Translations under genes and position numbers: made by a program
Notes under the pieces: model-generated
What the model saw: the letters and a program-made list of their open reading frames with translations, nothing else
Told to the model about the DNA's origin: nothing
The model's database searches: none
IMG/VR virus record: IMGVR_UViG_3300042988_000374
Span: 128,001 to 149,889 of that record
Reading direction: 5' to 3' (one strand)
DNA length: 21,889 nt
Source: a virus
Lineage: Duplodnaviria; Heunggongvirae; Uroviricota; Caudoviricetes
Part shown: positions 3,090 through 9,542 of the stretch, piece by piece
How positions within the stretch are numbered: position 1 is the stretch's first letter
How the letters are laid out: every line of letters begins with the position of its first letter

Positions 3090-3716
3090 TTATTGTGCTC
3101 TTAGGATAGCCAGCGCTTGTTCGTAGTGGTGTTGTCTGTCGGCTAAGCCAATATGGCCCCCATTAATGCGTTTTGTGAGCATAGCAAAGTCACCGCTATC
3201 ACAGTATTGATTTAAATTGTTTTGGTCCCAAAACCATCCGGCAGAACTTACCGCACCTGCTGGTGTCTCCATATATGCTACACACTCGTCGAGTGTTACG
3301 TCCAAGTCAGCAGCAAAGCGAGTGTAGTTACTCTTACCAGTTAATTGAATTAAACCACGACCACAGAATTTGTATCCGTCTCCCGACTCTTCTGGGCCAT
3401 TACCCATGCGATTAGCATACACGCGATTAGCAATCTTCTCTGGCTTGCGCTCATATTGTTTTGCCAAGTCTTCAGTAGGGAAATACTTTTTGAATGTAGT
3501 CATCAAACCCTTTGCACCGTAGGAAAGGTTCTCTTTTGTGAAGTTGAACGCCCCACTTTCGTGTGCAGTCTGTGCCAAGAAGGCAGCTAAACGTTCTGCT
3601 GACGTGTCTAACTCGTAATAAGCAGCGACTTCATTGAGTGGTTCAACATACTGTGCCAAGACAGCTTCTTTTGTTTTTGGGCATAATGCCTTTAAGATTT
3701 CTAGTGTTACTTGCAT
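3090..3716 (-). CDS. Glycoside hydrolase family 19 (chitinase-like) endolysin
   Basis: GH19 motifs FLAQTAHESG, ENL, IANRVYANRMGNG, GDGYKFCGRGLIQLTGKSNY, SAGWFW and TKRINGG. AAGGA SD upstream. Confidence 0.93.
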   Translation of the reverse strand: MQVTLEILKALCPKTKEAVLAQYVEPLNEVAAYYELDTSAERLAAFLAQTAHESGAFNFTKENLSYGAKGLMTTFKKYFPTEDLAKQYERKPEKIANRVYANRMGNGPEESGDGYKFCGRGLIQLTGKSNYTRFAADLDVTLDECVAYMETPAGAVSSAGWFWDQNNLNQYCDSGDFAMLTKRINGGHIGLADRQHHYEQALAILRAQ

Positions 3717-3726
3717 TTTAATTTCC

Positions 3727-4677
3727 TTAATCTTTAATATTTACCGTGCTGAAGTTCCAAGTTGTTGGTGCTTTGAGCGCTGCCAATACAACAGCATCAC
3801 TTGCCTCTCTTTTAGTTGAGTAGAATAGTGTGGTCAGACCTTCATATTCTCCACCCATACCTTTTGATACAAACTCAGCATCAGGGAACATGGTGTTATC
3901 AGTGAACACAACGTAATCAATTACGCCATCTGCCTTATGCTCAATGTGTGCGATTTCTTTTGGCGTCTCGTGACCACGAACTTCGATTACCGCGGGCGAG
4001 GTATGTGGTTCAAATTGAATCACCGACACTTTCGAACCAACTGTCATTTGCACTCTGCTACGACCGTCGATAGTTTTTAAATAACGCTGAAACTCAATCA
4101 AGTCGGCAATGGCGGTATGTTGGGATTCAAGTAATGTGTGTTCTGCTAACTGACGAAGAGTACTGCCCAATATATTGCCATCTCTGAATGGAATTCCAGG
4201 AGTATCTTTGCGCTCACGTTTGAATCTGGCGTAATACGCCGCACCAAAGTCTAAGATTTGATCACCAGTTACCATAAACTGGGCAAACTTCCAGTTACTC
4301 TCGTATATCGTTGCGTCACGTTTACCATAAGCCCGCATCATTCGTCCAGCCACCGCATTTGCTTCGTCTTCCACTGCGAGACGCTCTTCATCGTCCATGT
4401 CGTTGTGTGCGATTCCCTGTTCGAATTGCGAATGATGGACCAATTCGTGGGCCAGTGTACGACAGATATCAGCTACATTGCGATTGCCAACGTGTGTCCA
4501 GATTTCACCACGTGAGTTAGTGCTGCCAAATGTTCTGTTGGCTAACACAGGACCCATGTCATTACCGTACTCGATTTTTGGTGGATTCTCTATGCCCAAT
4601 TGTCCAATGGCCCAAGCTGCAAACTTCTTTACTTGCTGGACTTTATCGTTTAGGGTTTTAACTTCGTTGATGCGCAT
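3727..4677 (-). CDS. HEXXH zinc metallopeptidase-like domain with MRINEV leader, fused to a C-terminal domain of unknown function
   Basis: RTLAHELVHHSQ followed by EDEANAVAG (zincin pattern). The C-terminal part resembles the 152-aa and 165-aa proteins at 7477-7935 and 8515-9012. Confidence 0.75.
   Translation of the reverse strand: MRINEVKTLNDKVQQVKKFAAWAIGQLGIENPPKIEYGNDMGPVLANRTFGSTNSRGEIWTHVGNRNVADICRTLAHELVHHSQFEQGIAHNDMDDEERLAVEDEANAVAGRMMRAYGKRDATIYESNWKFAQFMVTGDQILDFGAAYYARFKRERKDTPGIPFRDGNILGSTLRQLAEHTLLESQHTAIADLIEFQRYLKTIDGRSRVQMTVGSKVSVIQFEPHTSPAVIEVRGHETPKEIAHIEHKADGVIDYVVFTDNTMFPDAEFVSKGMGGEYEGLTTLFYSTKREASDAVVLAALKAPTTWNFSTVNIKD
3738..3743 (-). promoter_or_regulatory. Putative T4-like late promoter (TAAATA) for the endolysin, inside the 3' end of the upstream gene
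   Basis: Minus strand reads TAAATA-TTAAAGATT-AAGGA-AATTAAA-ATG(3716). Confidence 0.5.
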
Positions 4678-4721: not shown

Positions 4722-5546
4722 ATGAAAAAACTACTATTAACGCTGCTCTTAGCAGTATCTACCGCAGCATTTGGTTGGACTCAACGACCACCATTAGCTG
4801 TTGAACAATGCCGTGTTCACGCACCATGGGGATTCCCAGTAACCTCTGGTGTTCAACCACTGTGCCAGCAAGCATATCTAGTTGGTTATGACGCACCAGC
4901 TAAATTGCCAAAGTTTGTCTCGTATGAGTTGCTGCCTAAGAATGCACTTGGTTGTGTACCACGAACCAATGCGTTTGCTACTAATCAATACATTCCTGGT
5001 GGCGCTACACCAGATGACTATGCTGCTACTGGATATGATCGAGGTCATATGGTACCAGATGGTGACCTATCATGGGATGTACAAGTTGAATTCGAGAGCT
5101 TCCTTATGAGTAACATGGCACCACAAGCTGGTTCACTCAATCGCGGTATCTGGAAATTACTGGAGACTAGTGTACGTGGCTGGGTAGTTCAGACTGGTCA
5201 ACCTTATGTGATTTATGCAGGTTCGGTATATGGACCTGGTGACAAAAAGATTGGTTCTGGAGTTGTAGTACCACATGCTTTCTATAAAGTGGTTGTTAAT
5301 GCCGCTACTGGTGAAGTTGCTGGCTGGTGGTTCCCGCATGTTGCACCATATCCGAACTTAGGTAACGACTTGACTAAGTTCCGTAAACCAGTTGCTATGA
5401 TTCAAAGTGAAGCTGGCGTGTCATTCTCATTCCCAGCAGGTGCTACTGAGTTACGTCCTGGCGCTGAATGGAAGGTAGACTACGGTAAGTTGACTAACCA
5501 AAAACGTGCGCGTTGTAAGAATCCAGCAGCCGACGCTAATGAGTAA
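4722..5546 (+). CDS. Secreted DNA/RNA non-specific endonuclease (Serratia NucA/EndoG betabetaalpha-metal family)
   Basis: Signal peptide MKKLLLTLLLAVSTAAFG; catalytic GYDRGHMVP; ESFLMSNMAPQAGSLNRGIWKLLE; VVVPHAFYKVV. This is the only credible plus-strand gene. Confidence 0.92.
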   Translation: MKKLLLTLLLAVSTAAFGWTQRPPLAVEQCRVHAPWGFPVTSGVQPLCQQAYLVGYDAPAKLPKFVSYELLPKNALGCVPRTNAFATNQYIPGGATPDDYAATGYDRGHMVPDGDLSWDVQVEFESFLMSNMAPQAGSLNRGIWKLLETSVRGWVVQTGQPYVIYAGSVYGPGDKKIGSGVVVPHAFYKVVVNAATGEVAGWWFPHVAPYPNLGNDLTKFRKPVAMIQSEAGVSFSFPAGATELRPGAEWKVDYGKLTNQKRARCKNPAADANE

Positions 5547-5562
5547 GATGGTAATTACCATG

Positions 5563-5589
5563 TAAAAAGGACCCAGTGGGTCCTTTTTA
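5563..5589. terminator. Bidirectional intrinsic terminator between convergent genes
   Basis: Perfect inverted repeat TAAAAAGGACCCA-G-TGGGTCCTTTTTA, giving a U-tract on both strands. Confidence 0.85.
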
Positions 5590-5904
5590 TTTCTTTGCTT
5601 GTTGTTTGATTCGTTCTTCAAGCACAGCTATGTGTTGCTTGTTCTCTTGAATCTGATCTCTGTTGACTTGAATTTCTTTTTCTAACTCTTGTCTAAGTTT
5701 TTCTCGTGCTAACTCACTACCTGTATTAGTAGCTTGCTTGTTGTCCGCGGTTACTACTAGACTTGCTTTTTGATTTAGTATTGTTACTTCGTGTTCTAGT
5801 CTACTTACTGCTGATAGTAGATAGCCTACGCCAGCAATTAGTAGTGGTAATAGAGCAAAGATTAACTTCTCAATAAACTGTCCCTTTTCGCTTTGATCAC
5901 TCAT
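5587..5904 (-). CDS. Single-TM protein with C-terminal coiled coil; unknown function (weak holin/antiholin candidate)
   Basis: Hydrophobic LIFALLPLLIAGVGYLLSAV followed by heptad-rich sequence. ATG at 5904 (MSDQ...) just after the upstream stop is preferred over 5916. Confidence 0.7.
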   Translation of the reverse strand: MSDQSEKGQFIEKLIFALLPLLIAGVGYLLSAVSRLEHEVTILNQKASLVVTADNKQATNTGSELAREKLRQELEKEIQVNRDQIQENKQHIAVLEERIKQQAKK

Positions 5905-5909
5905 AGTAA

Positions 5910-7379
5910 TCACCACTTACGACATGACCAGTAACGTGCTTTGGTACGTGGTCCGGGATTATCACAGTTGTGACGAGCGCGAAAGTTCTTACGACGACCT
6001 GGGTTAGATTTCTTAATCTTTGCTCCCTTTTGACCGAAGTTAACTTTCTTTACATTGCCTGTTGATGGGTCTTTGACGTATACTTTAAATTTAGCAACAT
6101 CGCCCTGCATAGGTTTGCCCAGTTGAACTTTGCGGCCTTGATACTCAGCTTCGTTTAGCATCTCTTCGTCGTACCATAGGTCGCCGTATGCTTCGTAGAA
6201 CTCGTCATCGTCGTGATATGTTTCTTCTAGCATACCTTCATTTGTTGGCTTCTTTTCTTTTTCTGCTTGAGCAATGTGTTGTTGAAGCATATCCCACAAT
6301 CTGTCGCTCTCAGATTTTTGCTGTTCTTTTTCTTTATCACTTAACTCCGCACGAGGGCGCTTACCGAATTCTGCTCTAGCAGTTTTAGTGTTTGCTTTTT
6401 TGGCTTCTGTTACCTTTTGATCTACATCTTGTTTGGCACGAGGGTCTTGCCAGTGATACACTAATCCATCTTTACCTAACACTTCACTCTTACTCATTAT
6501 GCCATCTGGTCTAGGTTTTCTTGGTTCAGGGAACTTACCATCATGTGCGCCAATACCGTGTTGTTGTAAGAATGCGTTACCTTCATCAACTTCATCCTTG
6601 TATTTGATGTTGGAAATCTTTTCTAGTTGTTCAGGATCAACATCACGCTGTGTTTTATATTGATAGCGATTCATACGGTCAATGAACATATTCATTGCTT
6701 TATCAATCACTGGATCACTTCCTGTACCTGGCAAACCACCGTGTACTGGTCCTTGTTTGTACTGATCTGCTTTTGCATTCCAATAAGCAACTTGTGAGTC
6801 GGTATATGCATCATCACTTCTTTGATGTCTATCTTGTTGATGCATTCTGGACTGATGAAGTCTATCCATATACTCACGGTGTTTTTGACGCTCGTTTTTC
6901 CTATCATCTTGTGTACCAAGGTAACCTTGATCGCCTAATTCATCTCTAACTCTGTTGAGTACTGAGCCTTCTGCTATACCTTCAGATAACTCTTGAGGTG
7001 TGAAGCCGATATAAGTATCACCATCTTCGTCACCGGCTTGAACTACAAAGCAGCCACCTTCTTCGCTTTCAAGAGGTCCAATTTCCCAACCAATGCTATC
7101 TAATGCCTGTTCAACTTTCTGTTTTACATTATCATCGCCTTGATACCACATACGAGCGAATTTAAGGAATTTATCATCGCTACCGCCATCTGCGGCGTAT
7201 TCATTCAATGCTCCCTCGTTAGCAGCCGCCTTAAAGTTTGCTGCCGTCGGAGCTCCTTTACTACCTGGCTTACGCATTTTTTCTCCACTGCCGGACTTGA
7301 TACGCTCCTGCTTAGCGTGAATGTTTGCCCACAAGCCTGGGCCTGTTTTGCCCTCGCCTAAAATTTCACTAATCTTCAT
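5910..7379 (-). CDS. Modular putative internal head (poly)protein with capsid-targeting-like leader and a conserved basic C-terminal phage domain
   Basis: Leader MKISEILGE; about 10 x-x-E|G/A-type junctions. The C-terminal AEYQGRKVQLGKPMQGDV...RRKNFRARHNCDNPGPRTKARYWSCRKW is a domain I recognise as widespread among T4-like phage hypothetical proteins. Confidence 0.75.
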   Translation of the reverse strand: MKISEILGEGKTGPGLWANIHAKQERIKSGSGEKMRKPGSKGAPTAANFKAAANEGALNEYAADGGSDDKFLKFARMWYQGDDNVKQKVEQALDSIGWEIGPLESEEGGCFVVQAGDEDGDTYIGFTPQELSEGIAEGSVLNRVRDELGDQGYLGTQDDRKNERQKHREYMDRLHQSRMHQQDRHQRSDDAYTDSQVAYWNAKADQYKQGPVHGGLPGTGSDPVIDKAMNMFIDRMNRYQYKTQRDVDPEQLEKISNIKYKDEVDEGNAFLQQHGIGAHDGKFPEPRKPRPDGIMSKSEVLGKDGLVYHWQDPRAKQDVDQKVTEAKKANTKTARAEFGKRPRAELSDKEKEQQKSESDRLWDMLQQHIAQAEKEKKPTNEGMLEETYHDDDEFYEAYGDLWYDEEMLNEAEYQGRKVQLGKPMQGDVAKFKVYVKDPSTGNVKKVNFGQKGAKIKKSNPGRRKNFRARHNCDNPGPRTKARYWSCRKW

Positions 7380-7485
7380 TTACCTGCTCCTTTGAATATT
7401 TGTTTTTGTATTTCATACCACTCGTTCCACGAATCGTTCTTAACTGCGCAGTCGTAGTGCGTACCGTAGTTGATAGTTACTGTAT
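7365..7485. repeat. Diverged 121-bp direct repeat, copy 1
   Basis: Ungapped match to 7921-8041 (offset 556), 19 mismatches by manual count (~84% identity). Confidence 0.92.
7376..7484 (-). pseudogene. Orphan 3' fragment of a second o-spanin allele (no start codon)
   Basis: Translates TVTINYGTHYDCAVKNDSWNEWYEIQKQIFKGAGK*, versus TVTLNYGAYYECAVKTDAWIEWYEIQKQIFEGAGK* in the intact gene. Confidence 0.85.
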
Positions 7486-7935
7486 AAAAGTTGGTAACGC
7501 TGTGTTAAAGCGTAACGACATCATTGTCTGGAACTCACTATAGGTATCTTTACTCGCAAAGGTGAATACGTAATATGTTGCTCTGGTAGTAATTACATCA
7601 TGCGGATATGTTTGTATCTTTGTTCCATCACTGAATTCTAATTGATCATTATTTTTACGAATGAACATCATAGTGCGTGGTGGGTCCAAAACCATAATCT
7701 TGTTATTCAATAAACACACCGGGACGACCATATATTTACCATTTGGTTCAGGAATGGCAGACATTTCGGTCAGACTCCTAAATTGACTTTCCGTCTCAAT
7801 GTCATTGGTTTCAAATAAATTAGACCCGTCATGTAGACTCTCAAAGAGCTCCATCCTATCAATGATACTAATTGATTCGGACAGCTCGGACCATCTCATA
7901 ACTGTTTTTTTAATGATTACTTCACTAATATTCAT
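7477..7935 (-). CDS. Hypothetical protein with MNISEV leader; paralogue of 8515-9012
   Basis: ATGA-coupled to the o-spanin stop. Shares NLFETND/TLFESND, GKYMV/KKYIV, TYPHD/TFPDN and FQTMMSLRF/FTTMMVLKY with the 165-aa protein. Confidence 0.8.
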   Translation of the reverse strand: MNISEVIIKKTVMRWSELSESISIIDRMELFESLHDGSNLFETNDIETESQFRSLTEMSAIPEPNGKYMVVPVCLLNNKIMVLDPPRTMMFIRKNNDQLEFSDGTKIQTYPHDVITTRATYYVFTFASKDTYSEFQTMMSLRFNTALPTFIQ

Positions 7936-8041
7936 TTACCTGCTCCTTCGAATATTTGTTTCTGTATTTCATACCATTCAATCCATGCGTCAGTCTTTAC
8001 TGCGCATTCATAGTACGCACCGTAGTTGAGCGTGACTGTAT
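7921..8041. repeat. Diverged 121-bp direct repeat, copy 2
   Basis: Matches 7365-7485. Covers the o-spanin 3' end plus the first five codons of the next gene. Confidence 0.92.
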
Positions 8042-8198
8042 TAGCAACATCACTTAATTTAGCATCTTCGTTCAACTTCTGAAGCTGAGGACACGCCACT
8101 TTAATTCGTGGCGGTGCTTCTGGGAATTTAGCGGTAACTGGCACAGCGGTAGTGCAGCCAGTTAAGATGATTGTTGCTAAGATTAATGCAATTCTCAT
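7932..8198 (-). CDS. Outer-membrane spanin (o-spanin, Rz1-like lipoprotein)
   Basis: Lipoprotein signal MRIALILATIILTG|C; Pro-rich linker with Cys (FPEAPPRIKVACPQL); NY..Y.ECA helix; lies downstream of an i-spanin. Confidence 0.85.
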   Translation of the reverse strand: MRIALILATIILTGCTTAVPVTAKFPEAPPRIKVACPQLQKLNEDAKLSDVANTVTLNYGAYYECAVKTDAWIEWYEIQKQIFEGAGK

Positions 8199-8513
8199 TT
8201 ACTTTCCCTTGCGCATTACCGGATAGTTTTGTTTATCAGGGCGACCTTCATTGCCATCACTACGATGAGTGCCTTCCTCGACACTCTGCTCATCATCCTG
8301 GAGCGACTGCTTAACCGCACGTGCAACATCTTGTGCCAAGGCAGTTGGATAGTTGTCGCCACCGTAGTTCAACACGTCCATGATGGCAGCATGTACCGTA
8401 CGTTCGTCAGCACGACGAGCCAAGTTAGGATAAATGCGTTCGAATTCACTGTAGATTTCGTTAGCTAGGTCCTCGTTGTCGTTTGATTCTTTAAGGATTT
8501 CGTTGATTCTCAT
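8199..8513 (-). CDS. Hypothetical acidic protein (104 aa) with MRINEILKE leader
   Basis: Start moved to ATG 8513, 1 nt after the upstream stop. Its stop abuts the o-spanin ATG. Internal SVEE|G site. Confidence 0.75.
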   Translation of the reverse strand: MRINEILKESNDNEDLANEIYSEFERIYPNLARRADERTVHAAIMDVLNYGGDNYPTALAQDVARAVKQSLQDDEQSVEEGTHRSDGNEGRPDKQNYPVMRKGK

Positions 8514-8514
8514 A

Positions 8515-9012
8515 TTAAACTTTCTGTTGGGATAATTGGTCGATGCCGATGATGTCTGCCTGTTTAACCACTCGCAGATCATATTTTAATACCATCATAG
8601 TGGTAAAGGCATCATATTTGTCTATTGATTCAAAAAACATTAGTAATGTCGCAACACGGGTGCTGAAGTGATTGTCCGGGAATGTTGAATGTGTACCATT
8701 AGCACGTTGAACACTCCAGCCATCTGGTGTTTTATCTAGTACAGTCATCACTTCTGGATGCTGGAATGACTGCACAGCATTGTTCATCATGCCGTACATG
8801 GCAACTATATATTTTTTATTGGTTACTGGCATGTCACCCGATTGTTGAATGTCTCTAAATTCTGCCAACTTATCGCTGTCATTTGATTCAAATAACGTGT
8901 TGTCAAATAGCAGAGCTTCCGCCAGCGTGATACGCTCCTGAGTAGTTAGACCTGGGAAGTCTGTCCACTGGAATGGCGTCTCATACTTCTTATCTAGCTC
9001 GTGCAACTTCAT
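8515..9012 (-). CDS. Hypothetical protein with MKLHEL leader; paralogue of 7477-7935
   Basis: ATGA-coupled to the i-spanin stop; aligns collinearly by eye with the 152-aa protein. Confidence 0.8.
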   Translation of the reverse strand: MKLHELDKKYETPFQWTDFPGLTTQERITLAEALLFDNTLFESNDSDKLAEFRDIQQSGDMPVTNKKYIVAMYGMMNNAVQSFQHPEVMTVLDKTPDGWSVQRANGTHSTFPDNHFSTRVATLLMFFESIDKYDAFTTMMVLKYDLRVVKQADIIGIDQLSQQKV

Positions 9013-9437
9013 TTAGTGGGCTCCGCTGCACTGTTGTGTGCCTTAATAAATGGTTGTGGGATGACGCATTGACTGTCATATTTGACGACTTCACGGTCAA
9101 TGTATTGTTTGACCACGATTGTTTTTTGTTGTACTTGTGCCTGTTTGCCAGCAACTCGGTCTGTAATCGCCGTATTTGCCTTAGCTGATTGCGCTTCTGC
9201 TCTAGCTAACTTGGCTTCAACTTCGAGGACACGCTCCTGCCATATCTTATTGTCTATGAGTGCACCTTCTAGCAGTATGGAGAGTGCTAGGATGAGCGCA
9301 CCGCCGACTTTAAGTAGGAGAGCATACTGTTTGATAGCTTTTACTCCGCCGAGCGTGGTGCCTACTATAAGTGCCAAGGCACTGGTAATGAGTAGTAGGT
9401 GAATGAACCAGTCTGGAGTGATAGAGAGAATGAACAT
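9009..9437 (-). CDS. Inner-membrane spanin (i-spanin, Rz-like)
   Basis: Two N-terminal hydrophobic segments, an Ala/Glu/Lys coiled coil, and C-terminal YIDREVVKYDSQCVIPQPFIKAHNSAA with a single Cys, typical of Rz-like proteins. Confidence 0.8.
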   Translation of the reverse strand: MFILSITPDWFIHLLLITSALALIVGTTLGGVKAIKQYALLLKVGGALILALSILLEGALIDNKIWQERVLEVEAKLARAEAQSAKANTAITDRVAGKQAQVQQKTIVVKQYIDREVVKYDSQCVIPQPFIKAHNSAAEPTK

Positions 9438-9440
9438 CTC

Positions 9441-9542
9441 TTATTTATCAGCGGAATCGTCCTCGGCAATATCTGGCTGACGGGCGGCTTGTCGTTCGGA
9501 TAATTCCCGTGCAATTTTAACGCTGTGATATTTTTCAGTCAT
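9441..9542 (-). CDS. Small hypothetical peptide (33 aa)
   Basis: MTEKYHSVKIARELSERQAARQPDIAEDDSADK*. ATGA overlap with the upstream stop; fills the intergenic gap exactly. Confidence 0.45.
   Translation of the reverse strand: MTEKYHSVKIARELSERQAARQPDIAEDDSADK
9442..9447 (-). promoter_or_regulatory. Late-type promoter TAAATA heading the spanin operon
   Basis: GATAAATA-AGAG-ATG(9437); same geometry as at 4682-4687. Confidence 0.6.

Follow-up and report, generated by a model that had tools for sequence, protein, structure and literature searches.

The classical account of phage mosaicism is the Hendrix/Juhala model, and morons are extra units, each transcribed independently, that sit between the genes of a phage. 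For lambdoid phages, relaxed homologous recombination has been documented between relatives that have diverged (De Paepe et al. 2014, PMC3945230), and in T4-type phages the PeSL mobile regulatory cassettes, consisting of promoter and stem-loop motifs, reach ~50 copies per genome and have been proposed to travel by a mini-circle route (Arbiol et al. 2010, PMC2839356). Here we describe a pair of diverged direct repeats that bracket the small gene p152, immediately downstream of the o-spanin gene, in a 21,889-nucleotide stretch of a tailed-phage genome (positions 128,001 to 149,889 of IMG/VR record IMGVR_UViG_3300042988_000374; this whole stretch is hereafter the window). The window is the last 21.9 kb of the 149,889-bp record, for which CheckV gives a completeness of 42%, and as relatives lie on contigs of up to 374 kb it comes from a fragment of a jumbo phage from aquatic (freshwater) metagenomes. 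Megablast of window positions 5500-9500 against 50,697 phage records returned no match, and no isolate there is similar at the DNA level. We propose that the second spanin tail at this locus is probably the scar of an out-of-register recombination between two related phages of one freshwater jumbo-phage clade. The locus is a case of ordinary phage mosaicism, which is well documented, and not a new mobile element. The features on which this proposal depends are as follows.

7932-8198, minus strand: o-spanin gene, 88 amino acids, lipobox LTGC.
7921-8041, minus strand: repeat copy B, with the working o-spanin 3′ end (last 35 codons), the ATGA overlap and the first five codons of p152 (MNISE).
7477-7935, minus strand: p152, 152 amino acids, of an uncharacterised phage domain family of ~140 amino acids.
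7485-7486, minus strand: novel joint, where the end of p152-specific sequence meets spanin codon ~53, with the p152 stop 7 nt inside the relic.
7365-7485, minus strand: repeat copy A, with the 35 codons of the relic tail (7379-7483, no start) and its stop (7376-7378), the ATGA and the first five codons of p489 (MKISE).
Between p152 and p489, minus strand: relic o-spanin tail, inside repeat copy A.
7421-7485, minus strand: 5′ 65 nt of copy A, 75% (49/65) identical to copy B (7977-8041) and 83% (54/65) to the relative L232.
7365-7420, minus strand: 3′ 56 nt of copy A, comprising spanin C-terminal codons, Shine-Dalgarno sequence, ATGA and leader; this part matches copy B (7921-7976) at 53/56 positions and the relatives L232 and L233 at 54/56.
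5910-7379, minus strand: p489, 489 amino acids, multi-module, with its N-terminal module placed after the relic exactly as in L232 and L233.

The two copies, on the minus strand like the genes around them, align without gaps over 121 nt with 102/121 positions identical (84%) at a spacing of 556 nt. A reading made earlier from the letters alone (the sequence-only reading) had described such a pair at ~84% with 19 differences, and both our repeat search and our alignment return these values. Homology ends abruptly at both flanks of the repeat in the MAFFT alignment, and self-BLAST of the whole record gives the pair an E value of 2e-30 as the sole such pair in the window, the other repeats in the record being tandem paralogs. 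Each copy holds the last ~35 spanin codons, the ATGA and M-x-ISE, and the frame listing confirms that the downstream copy, as had been stated, is start-less and stop-free. In copy B the o-spanin stop TGA sits within the ATGA that overlaps the p152 start. In copy A the stop-free spanin tail runs in the -1 frame relative to p152; listed from stop to stop this frame is open for 42 codons and contains no ATG, GTG or TTG, and the relic, having no start codon, is predicted not to be translated. The repeat also supplies the stop of p152, which had been seen as well, since the TAA at 7477-7479 occupies repeat positions 7-9. As L232, L233 and L231 carry a different stop codon of the p152 frame at these same positions, a stop was probably already present when the joint formed. 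Furthermore, the C-terminus of p152 coincides in the alignment with the end of the family domain, which the joint therefore did not truncate.

Comparison with the nine closest functional o-spanins, found via a protein database, supports the assignment of copy A to a different o-spanin allele over its origin as a duplicate decayed in place. Across the 35 codons, tails A and B differ by 10 synonymous and 8 non-synonymous changes, with a ratio of non-synonymous to synonymous rates (dN/dS) of 0.12; 18 random substitutions would bring 12.7 amino-acid changes on average, and the probability of eight or fewer is 0.005. Of the 19 sites that differ, 12 show both states among the nine functional alleles, with four states private to A and three to B. 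The tails are of two allelic origins, A belonging to the D..N class together with L228, L231, L232 and L233 and B to the E..T class together with L230 and L235. The nearest sequence to tail A is L232, at 108/121 versus 102/121 for tail B, and the similarity to L232 runs unbroken through the ATGA and ~170 nt of p489 at 90-97% before it falls to 60-70%. This unbroken colinearity places the relic, in all likelihood, next to its native downstream partner p489. The allele assignment rests on linked polymorphisms, on colinearity with L232 and on substitution patterns, with no supported clade behind it, and it agrees with the sequence-only reading, which had taken the downstream copy for the allele of a second phage.

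The same comparisons bear on an origin within one genome, in which the spanin tail would have been copied during insertion or rearrangement of p152 and the copies would have diverged in situ. Over all 121 nt the copies do share more identity with each other (84%) than with the relative L088 (74% for either), and a clade of A and B is not rejected by the approximately unbiased (AU) test. We nevertheless regard duplication in place as very unlikely. A neutral drift model predicts ~70% non-synonymous changes, and the 8/18 observed are too few for a decayed copy (binomial P 0.02); 12 of the 19 differences would need to have arisen independently of the other alleles that carry them, as homoplasies; and the relic is contiguous with a p489 start of the L232 type. 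In the 5′ 65 nt, moreover, copy A is about as far from copy B (49/65) as it is from L088 (51/65, with copy B at 48/65 to L088) and is nearer to L232 (54/65).

Private changes in the relic indicate what happened to it afterwards. The four states private to tail A, Y62H (7459), A71S (7432), I73N (7425) and E84K (7393), are all non-synonymous and all stand at positions invariant in 9/9 of the closest relatives; the first three lie in the 5′ 65 nt of copy A and E84K in the 3′ 56 nt. H62 and K84 occur in 0/49 distinct functional tails. Counted by codon, the private changes of tail A number 1 synonymous and 4 non-synonymous, whereas the corresponding numbers for six functional tails are 21 and 8 (Fisher p 0.042). 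Constraint on the relic has been relaxed, and the tail appears to be decaying. The purifying-type divergence and the private changes at invariant sites together suggest, therefore, that tail A evolved in a working gene and then lost constraint, and the earlier description of its substitutions as conservative does not hold for these four.

It is scarcely credible, in our view, that the relic tail is still expressed and active on the spanin complex, for instance as a -1 frameshift extension of p152 or as a small peptide. Such a role would be in keeping with the 42 stop-free codons and with the position of the relic in the -1 frame of p152, but a frame of this kind would be stop-free by chance with a probability of 0.33, which makes its openness uninformative, and it holds none of the start codons ATG, GTG and TTG. 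The changes at the four invariant positions among nine relatives, Y62H and E84K in particular, also speak against a working peptide. As for a -1 frameshift fusion of p152 with the relic, we rejected it: the overlap contains no X XXY YYZ slippery heptamer, RNA structure is not significant (z +1.1), and p152 lacks a signal peptide, so that the fusion would not reach the periplasm.

Relatives show which genes can follow the o-spanin. L232 (JGI 3300043410) and L233 (JGI 3300047560) are two short contigs, each from its own sample, in which an intact o-spanin is ATGA-coupled straight to a p489-like gene; the o-spanin protein is 77% identical to that of the window. This arrangement is the empty site that the sequence-only reading had proposed to look for. 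The 88.6-kb contig L088 shares synteny with the window between thymidylate synthase and endolysin, its proteins being 57-94% identical, and has its o-spanin ATGA-coupled to a p152 homolog (48% identity), followed 2 nt later by a short p489 homolog, with no duplicated tail. In L087 the o-spanin is likewise ATGA-coupled to a p152 homolog, and in both L088 and L087 the next gene follows within 1-2 nt and there is no relic. Both parental arrangements are present in nature. Because L088 and L087 carry a p152-family gene in this slot without the repeat, p152 does not appear to be a newcomer there, and the earlier description of it as cargo that arrived at the site is too strong. A 266-amino-acid MKISE-led protein occupies the slot in L228/229, L231 and L234; L230 and L235-237 have nothing comparable in it; and in more distant relatives an endolysin homolog directly follows the o-spanin in 33/80 loci. 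L232 and L231 have spanins that are 90% identical and downstream genes that are unrelated from the leader onward. Mosaic boundaries thus recur at the junction between o-spanin and the next gene, which can be occupied by at least three different gene types. Among the relatives compared, the scar is kept only in the window genome.

We propose the following model for the origin of the locus. Parent 1 would have carried o-spanin, ATGA and a p152-family gene, in the order now seen in L088 and L087, and parent 2 o-spanin, ATGA and a p489-like gene, in the order now seen in L232 and L233. In what we infer to be a single unequal crossover, with microhomology of at most 7 nt at the joint, the 3′ end of p152 would have been joined illegitimately to about codon 53 of the o-spanin of parent 2. 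The whole part left of this joint, the working o-spanin and p152, would then derive from parent 1, and to its right the last 35 spanin codons would derive from parent 2 together with their native partner p489 and its Shine-Dalgarno sequence and ATGA. With a stop codon 7 nt into the relic, p152 would end at the edge of its conserved domain, p489 would retain a strong ribosome-binding site, and the start-less tail would be silent and left to decay. An equivalent version, which corresponds to the view of the sequence-only reading that the gene arrived with a replacement spanin tail, would combine a homologous crossover upstream with the illegitimate joint. That reading also had translational coupling kept for both genes, which stands for p152, ATGA-coupled to the o-spanin, and fails for p489, because 97 nt separate the p152 stop from the p489 start downstream of it; p489 would therefore rely on its inherited Shine-Dalgarno sequence and not on coupling to p152. 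Taken together, its observation of the locus is confirmed and its interpretation partly supported.

Several points weigh against this model. A maximum-likelihood tree of the tails, which had been suggested as a check and could be built on 107 nt, contains no supported clade, and the AU test rejects neither the pairing of A with B as sisters (p 0.25) nor the grouping of A with L232/L233 (p 0.30). All statistics come from 18-19 substitutions, with Fisher tests that are no more than marginal (p 0.02-0.04). No close relative of the left-hand (p152) parent was found, the nearest p152 homolog being 48% identical and no allele coming close to the 5′ part of tail B. The 95% identity of the 3′ 56 nt demands an extra assumption, either a shared junction segment or gene conversion. 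Finally, the record that contains the joint is a metagenome assembly. This last point raises the explanation that the locus is an assembly chimera of two co-occurring strains, to which the presence of both parental haplotype types in similar freshwater samples would lend itself. We consider a chimera highly improbable and rejected it on topology: a mis-join through the repeat would delete p152 or swap the tails and cannot make the adjacency of the p152 end and codon 53 (at most 7 nt shared), and the shared runs, at 18 nt or less, are under the usual assembler k-mers.

The extra assumption concerns the unevenness of identity along the repeat: 49/65 positions agree in the 5′ part and 53/56 in the 3′ part, a significant difference (Fisher p 0.005; breakpoint permutation p 0.024). 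Over these last 56 nt, L232/L233 agree with both copies at 53-54/56 positions, and L088 and L228 at only 39-48/56. The repeat itself therefore appears to be mosaic. Its 3′ near-identity would reflect either a junction segment already common to both parents or a later, short gene-conversion tract; a conversion step is accordingly only an optional part of our model. A nearby homing nuclease could promote local gene conversion, and an HNH_3-type endonuclease gene, absent from the window, does lie between the secreted nuclease and peptidase genes of L228 (7946-8386) and L229 (2415-2855).

The 3′ part is also the starting point for a different explanation, in which the last ~56 nt of the spanin gene with the Shine-Dalgarno sequence, ATGA and MKISE leader would form a portable junction cassette, a homology linker through which genes like p152 enter and leave by homologous recombination, possibly as mini-circles, the 5′ 65 nt of copy A being baggage only. 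Indeed, copies A and B, L232 and L233 are 53-56/56 identical to one another here and only 75-85% in the adjoining sequence, the p152 leader of the window is nearer to the p489 leader of L232 than to the leaders of the p152 homologs in L088 and L087, three gene types share one leader directly after the o-spanin in close relatives, and that leader opens twelve genes of the 150-kb record. The PeSL cassettes (PMC2839356) offer a precedent, being likewise a short conserved expression signal just upstream of small variable genes in a plastic region, where flanking copies could delete a gene or release a circle. Unlike PeSL, the present element is coding sequence with Shine-Dalgarno sequence, ATGA and leader, it is present in two copies, and it has neither promoter nor hairpin. 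We hold such a cassette to be distinctly unlikely, as the record has a single repeat pair and no linker family beside other genes, the sequences upstream of the other MKISE genes are unrelated, the p152 homologs of L088 and L087 lack a second linker downstream, and the longest run identical between the copies is 18 nt.

Nor was a further copy found elsewhere, whether by word-index protein search with p152 or by scans of viral and metagenome contigs. The word-index search returned p152 only; a scan of viral contigs with an alignment of the three paralogs, an exact scan of viral contigs for the 3′ part of the repeat and a comparison of the back-translated spanin C-terminus with metagenome contigs gave no match; and in the search with the p489 N-module the best 80 of at least 540 loci were without any spanin. 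In a broader form, the end of the o-spanin gene (last ~19 codons) with Shine-Dalgarno sequence, ATGA and MKISE leader might serve as a dedicated exchange point for MKISE-led modules in the freshwater jumbo-phage clade, which we think unlikely. Were this so, the modules swapped would be the p152 family, the p489 type and the 266-amino-acid type, either stand-alone or in fused multi-module proteins, and the window would show one exchange mid-way, as a coding-sequence analogue of the PeSL cassettes.

The recombination scar that we favour has its closest likeness in the mosaic joints of lambdoid prophages (PMC3945230), in which, as here, diverged relatives exchange DNA, the boundary falls on a gene junction, a remnant of the truncated gene stays behind and the population contains both parental arrangements. 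Unlike those joints, the present one belongs to a virulent-looking metagenomic jumbo phage, no recombinase has been identified in the 42%-complete fragment, and the scar keeps an in-register 121-nt duplicate that still feeds the ribosome-binding site of the next gene. Joints of mosaicism usually show up as a sudden change in similarity and nothing more; at this locus the scar itself is preserved, each parental arrangement can be identified in environmental contigs, and the order of events, namely divergence under selection, truncation and decay, can be read. This makes the locus a convenient natural marker for the shuffling of accessory genes near the lysis cassette in uncultivated jumbo phages. 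The slot after the o-spanin emerges as a recurrent exchange point, and no new mechanism of mobility is revealed.

With respect to future mobility, the sequence-only reading had foreseen a clean excision of 556 bp between the copies. This is possible on paper, but the longest identical run of 18 nt falls below the minimal pairing lengths of 23-34 bp quoted for Red-beta and RecA (PMC3945230), and because of this short run spontaneous excision should be infrequent. Profiles for RecA, RecT and ERF gave no match in the 150-kb fragment, which at 42% completeness is uninformative. Domain scans of the window open reading frames found no integrase, transposase or homing nuclease, in agreement with the earlier statement that no integrase or nuclease is associated with p152; p152 has no nuclease domain, and the only nuclease of the window is a secreted NucA-type enzyme encoded on the opposite strand. 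There are no inverted repeats in 6000-9500. Transposon or insertion-sequence (IS) insertion was rejected: direct repeats bracket an inserted gene here as in transposon target-site duplications, but they are 121 nt long at only 84% identity, have no terminal inverted repeats and are accompanied by no transposase or integrase domain. Insertion driven by a homing endonuclease was set aside as well, there being no endonuclease in or beside p152. In 7200-8300 no promoter or terminator signal exceeded shuffled sequences, the promoter scan covering sigma-70-type promoters only, and the fold z-scores were +1.1 and -0.7. Like a moron, p152 is an extra small gene between two conserved neighbours; unlike one, it has no promoter or terminator of its own and is translationally coupled to the o-spanin.

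The remaining genes of the region are, upstream of the o-spanin and then onward from p489 in the listed order:

9009-9437, minus strand: i-spanin, 142 amino acids, with an N-terminal membrane helix and coiled coil; its homologs adjoin the o-spanin in most relatives.
8515-9012, minus strand: p165, a paralog of p152 (29% identity), ATGA-coupled to the i-spanin.
8199-8513, minus strand: gene of 104 amino acids starting MRINEIL; a longer open reading frame of 127 amino acids begins at 8582.
Next after p489: gene for a membrane/coiled-coil protein of 109 amino acids.
Next, plus strand: gene for a secreted NucA-type nuclease.
3727-4677: gene for a putative metallopeptidase of 316 amino acids.
3090-3716, minus strand: gene for a GH19-type endolysin, last in the order.

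The 88-amino-acid product has an N-terminal hydrophobic stretch ending in LTGC, a small-lipoprotein feature of an o-spanin, the outer-membrane subunit of a two-component spanin (Rz1/LysC-like), and scores with PHROG 2425 (4e-10), with the 'Rz-like spanin' PHROGs 456 (2e-5) and 812 (2e-3), and with Pfam LysC at 18.7 bits, below the 27-bit cut-off; some of its database homologs carry PF23793. In 73/78 relatives the end of the i-spanin homolog and the start of the o-spanin lie no more than 90 nt apart, the two genes being adjacent or overlapping. In the window p165 and the MRINEIL gene separate the two (8199-9012), and inserts at this junction are also seen in L088, L228, L037, L045, L048, L056 and L072.

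The p152 family comprises 179 clusters at 50% identity, its members being either stand-alone (~150 amino acids) or part of multi-module proteins of 300-1,500 amino acids; among the ten long members that were scanned there is one with an SLT transglycosylase domain and one with DUF6321. The family hidden Markov model (HMM) finds three copies of the domain in the record, in p152, in p165 and within a 490-amino-acid protein, and none in the C-terminal half of the 316-amino-acid protein (E above 1). The public gene call for p152 is 125 amino acids long, from Met28; alignments with the paralog and the family reach residue 1 and favour the ATGA-coupled form of 152. A structure model built from 51 sequences (predicted local distance difference test, pLDDT, 83) has helices, a small SH3-like barrel and a C-terminal helix; a model from a three-sequence alignment was unusable (pLDDT 44). 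A Foldseek search of PDB with the p152 model had no match at E 0.001 or better, the matches in BFVD were all phage proteins without characterisation, and the best VIA-align Z was 4.6, to generic SH3/Tudor-like barrels, from which no function follows. The repeated placement of the family beside spanins and its fusion to wall-degrading domains suggest that p152 may be envelope- or virion-associated. The 490-amino-acid protein (L082:2835-4307; G000 64834-66306) has an N-terminal module, a p152-family domain behind a leader-like RISKL, a linker and a C-terminal part which, read by eye, we take to be a GH19-type lysozyme domain; it looks like a polyvalent or virion-associated protein.

Modularity extends to the neighbours. 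p489 is a fusion of modules that elsewhere are separate genes or occur in other combinations (loci compared: L088:4271-4693 and 5477-6160, L232:323-739, L147:3927-4895). L088 has a 227-amino-acid form with the N- and C-modules only and, between its two spanins, a stand-alone gene of 140 amino acids that corresponds to p489 residues ~315-392; the form in L232 has 138 amino acids, and the N-module alone occurs at 540 or more metagenome loci. The homolog of the 316-amino-acid metallopeptidase in L228/L229 has only 130 amino acids (L228:8568-8960), and the C-terminal ~190 amino acids of the window protein are therefore a separable module. The leader M-[KRN]-[IL]-x-[ED]-[IVL], mostly MKISE, opens 12 genes of the record, with window starts at 4677, 7379, 7935, 8513 and 9012 (minus strand), and in relatives the same leader opens different genes after the o-spanin. 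As the DNA upstream of these 12 genes is unrelated, what they share is the stretch of the first five or six codons as such. Two tandem paralogs of 282 and 280 amino acids with membrane segments, starting MKIKEV and MKISEV (G000 63145-64837; L082:1146-2838), explain a further direct repeat of 90 nt at 77% identity (63144/63994).

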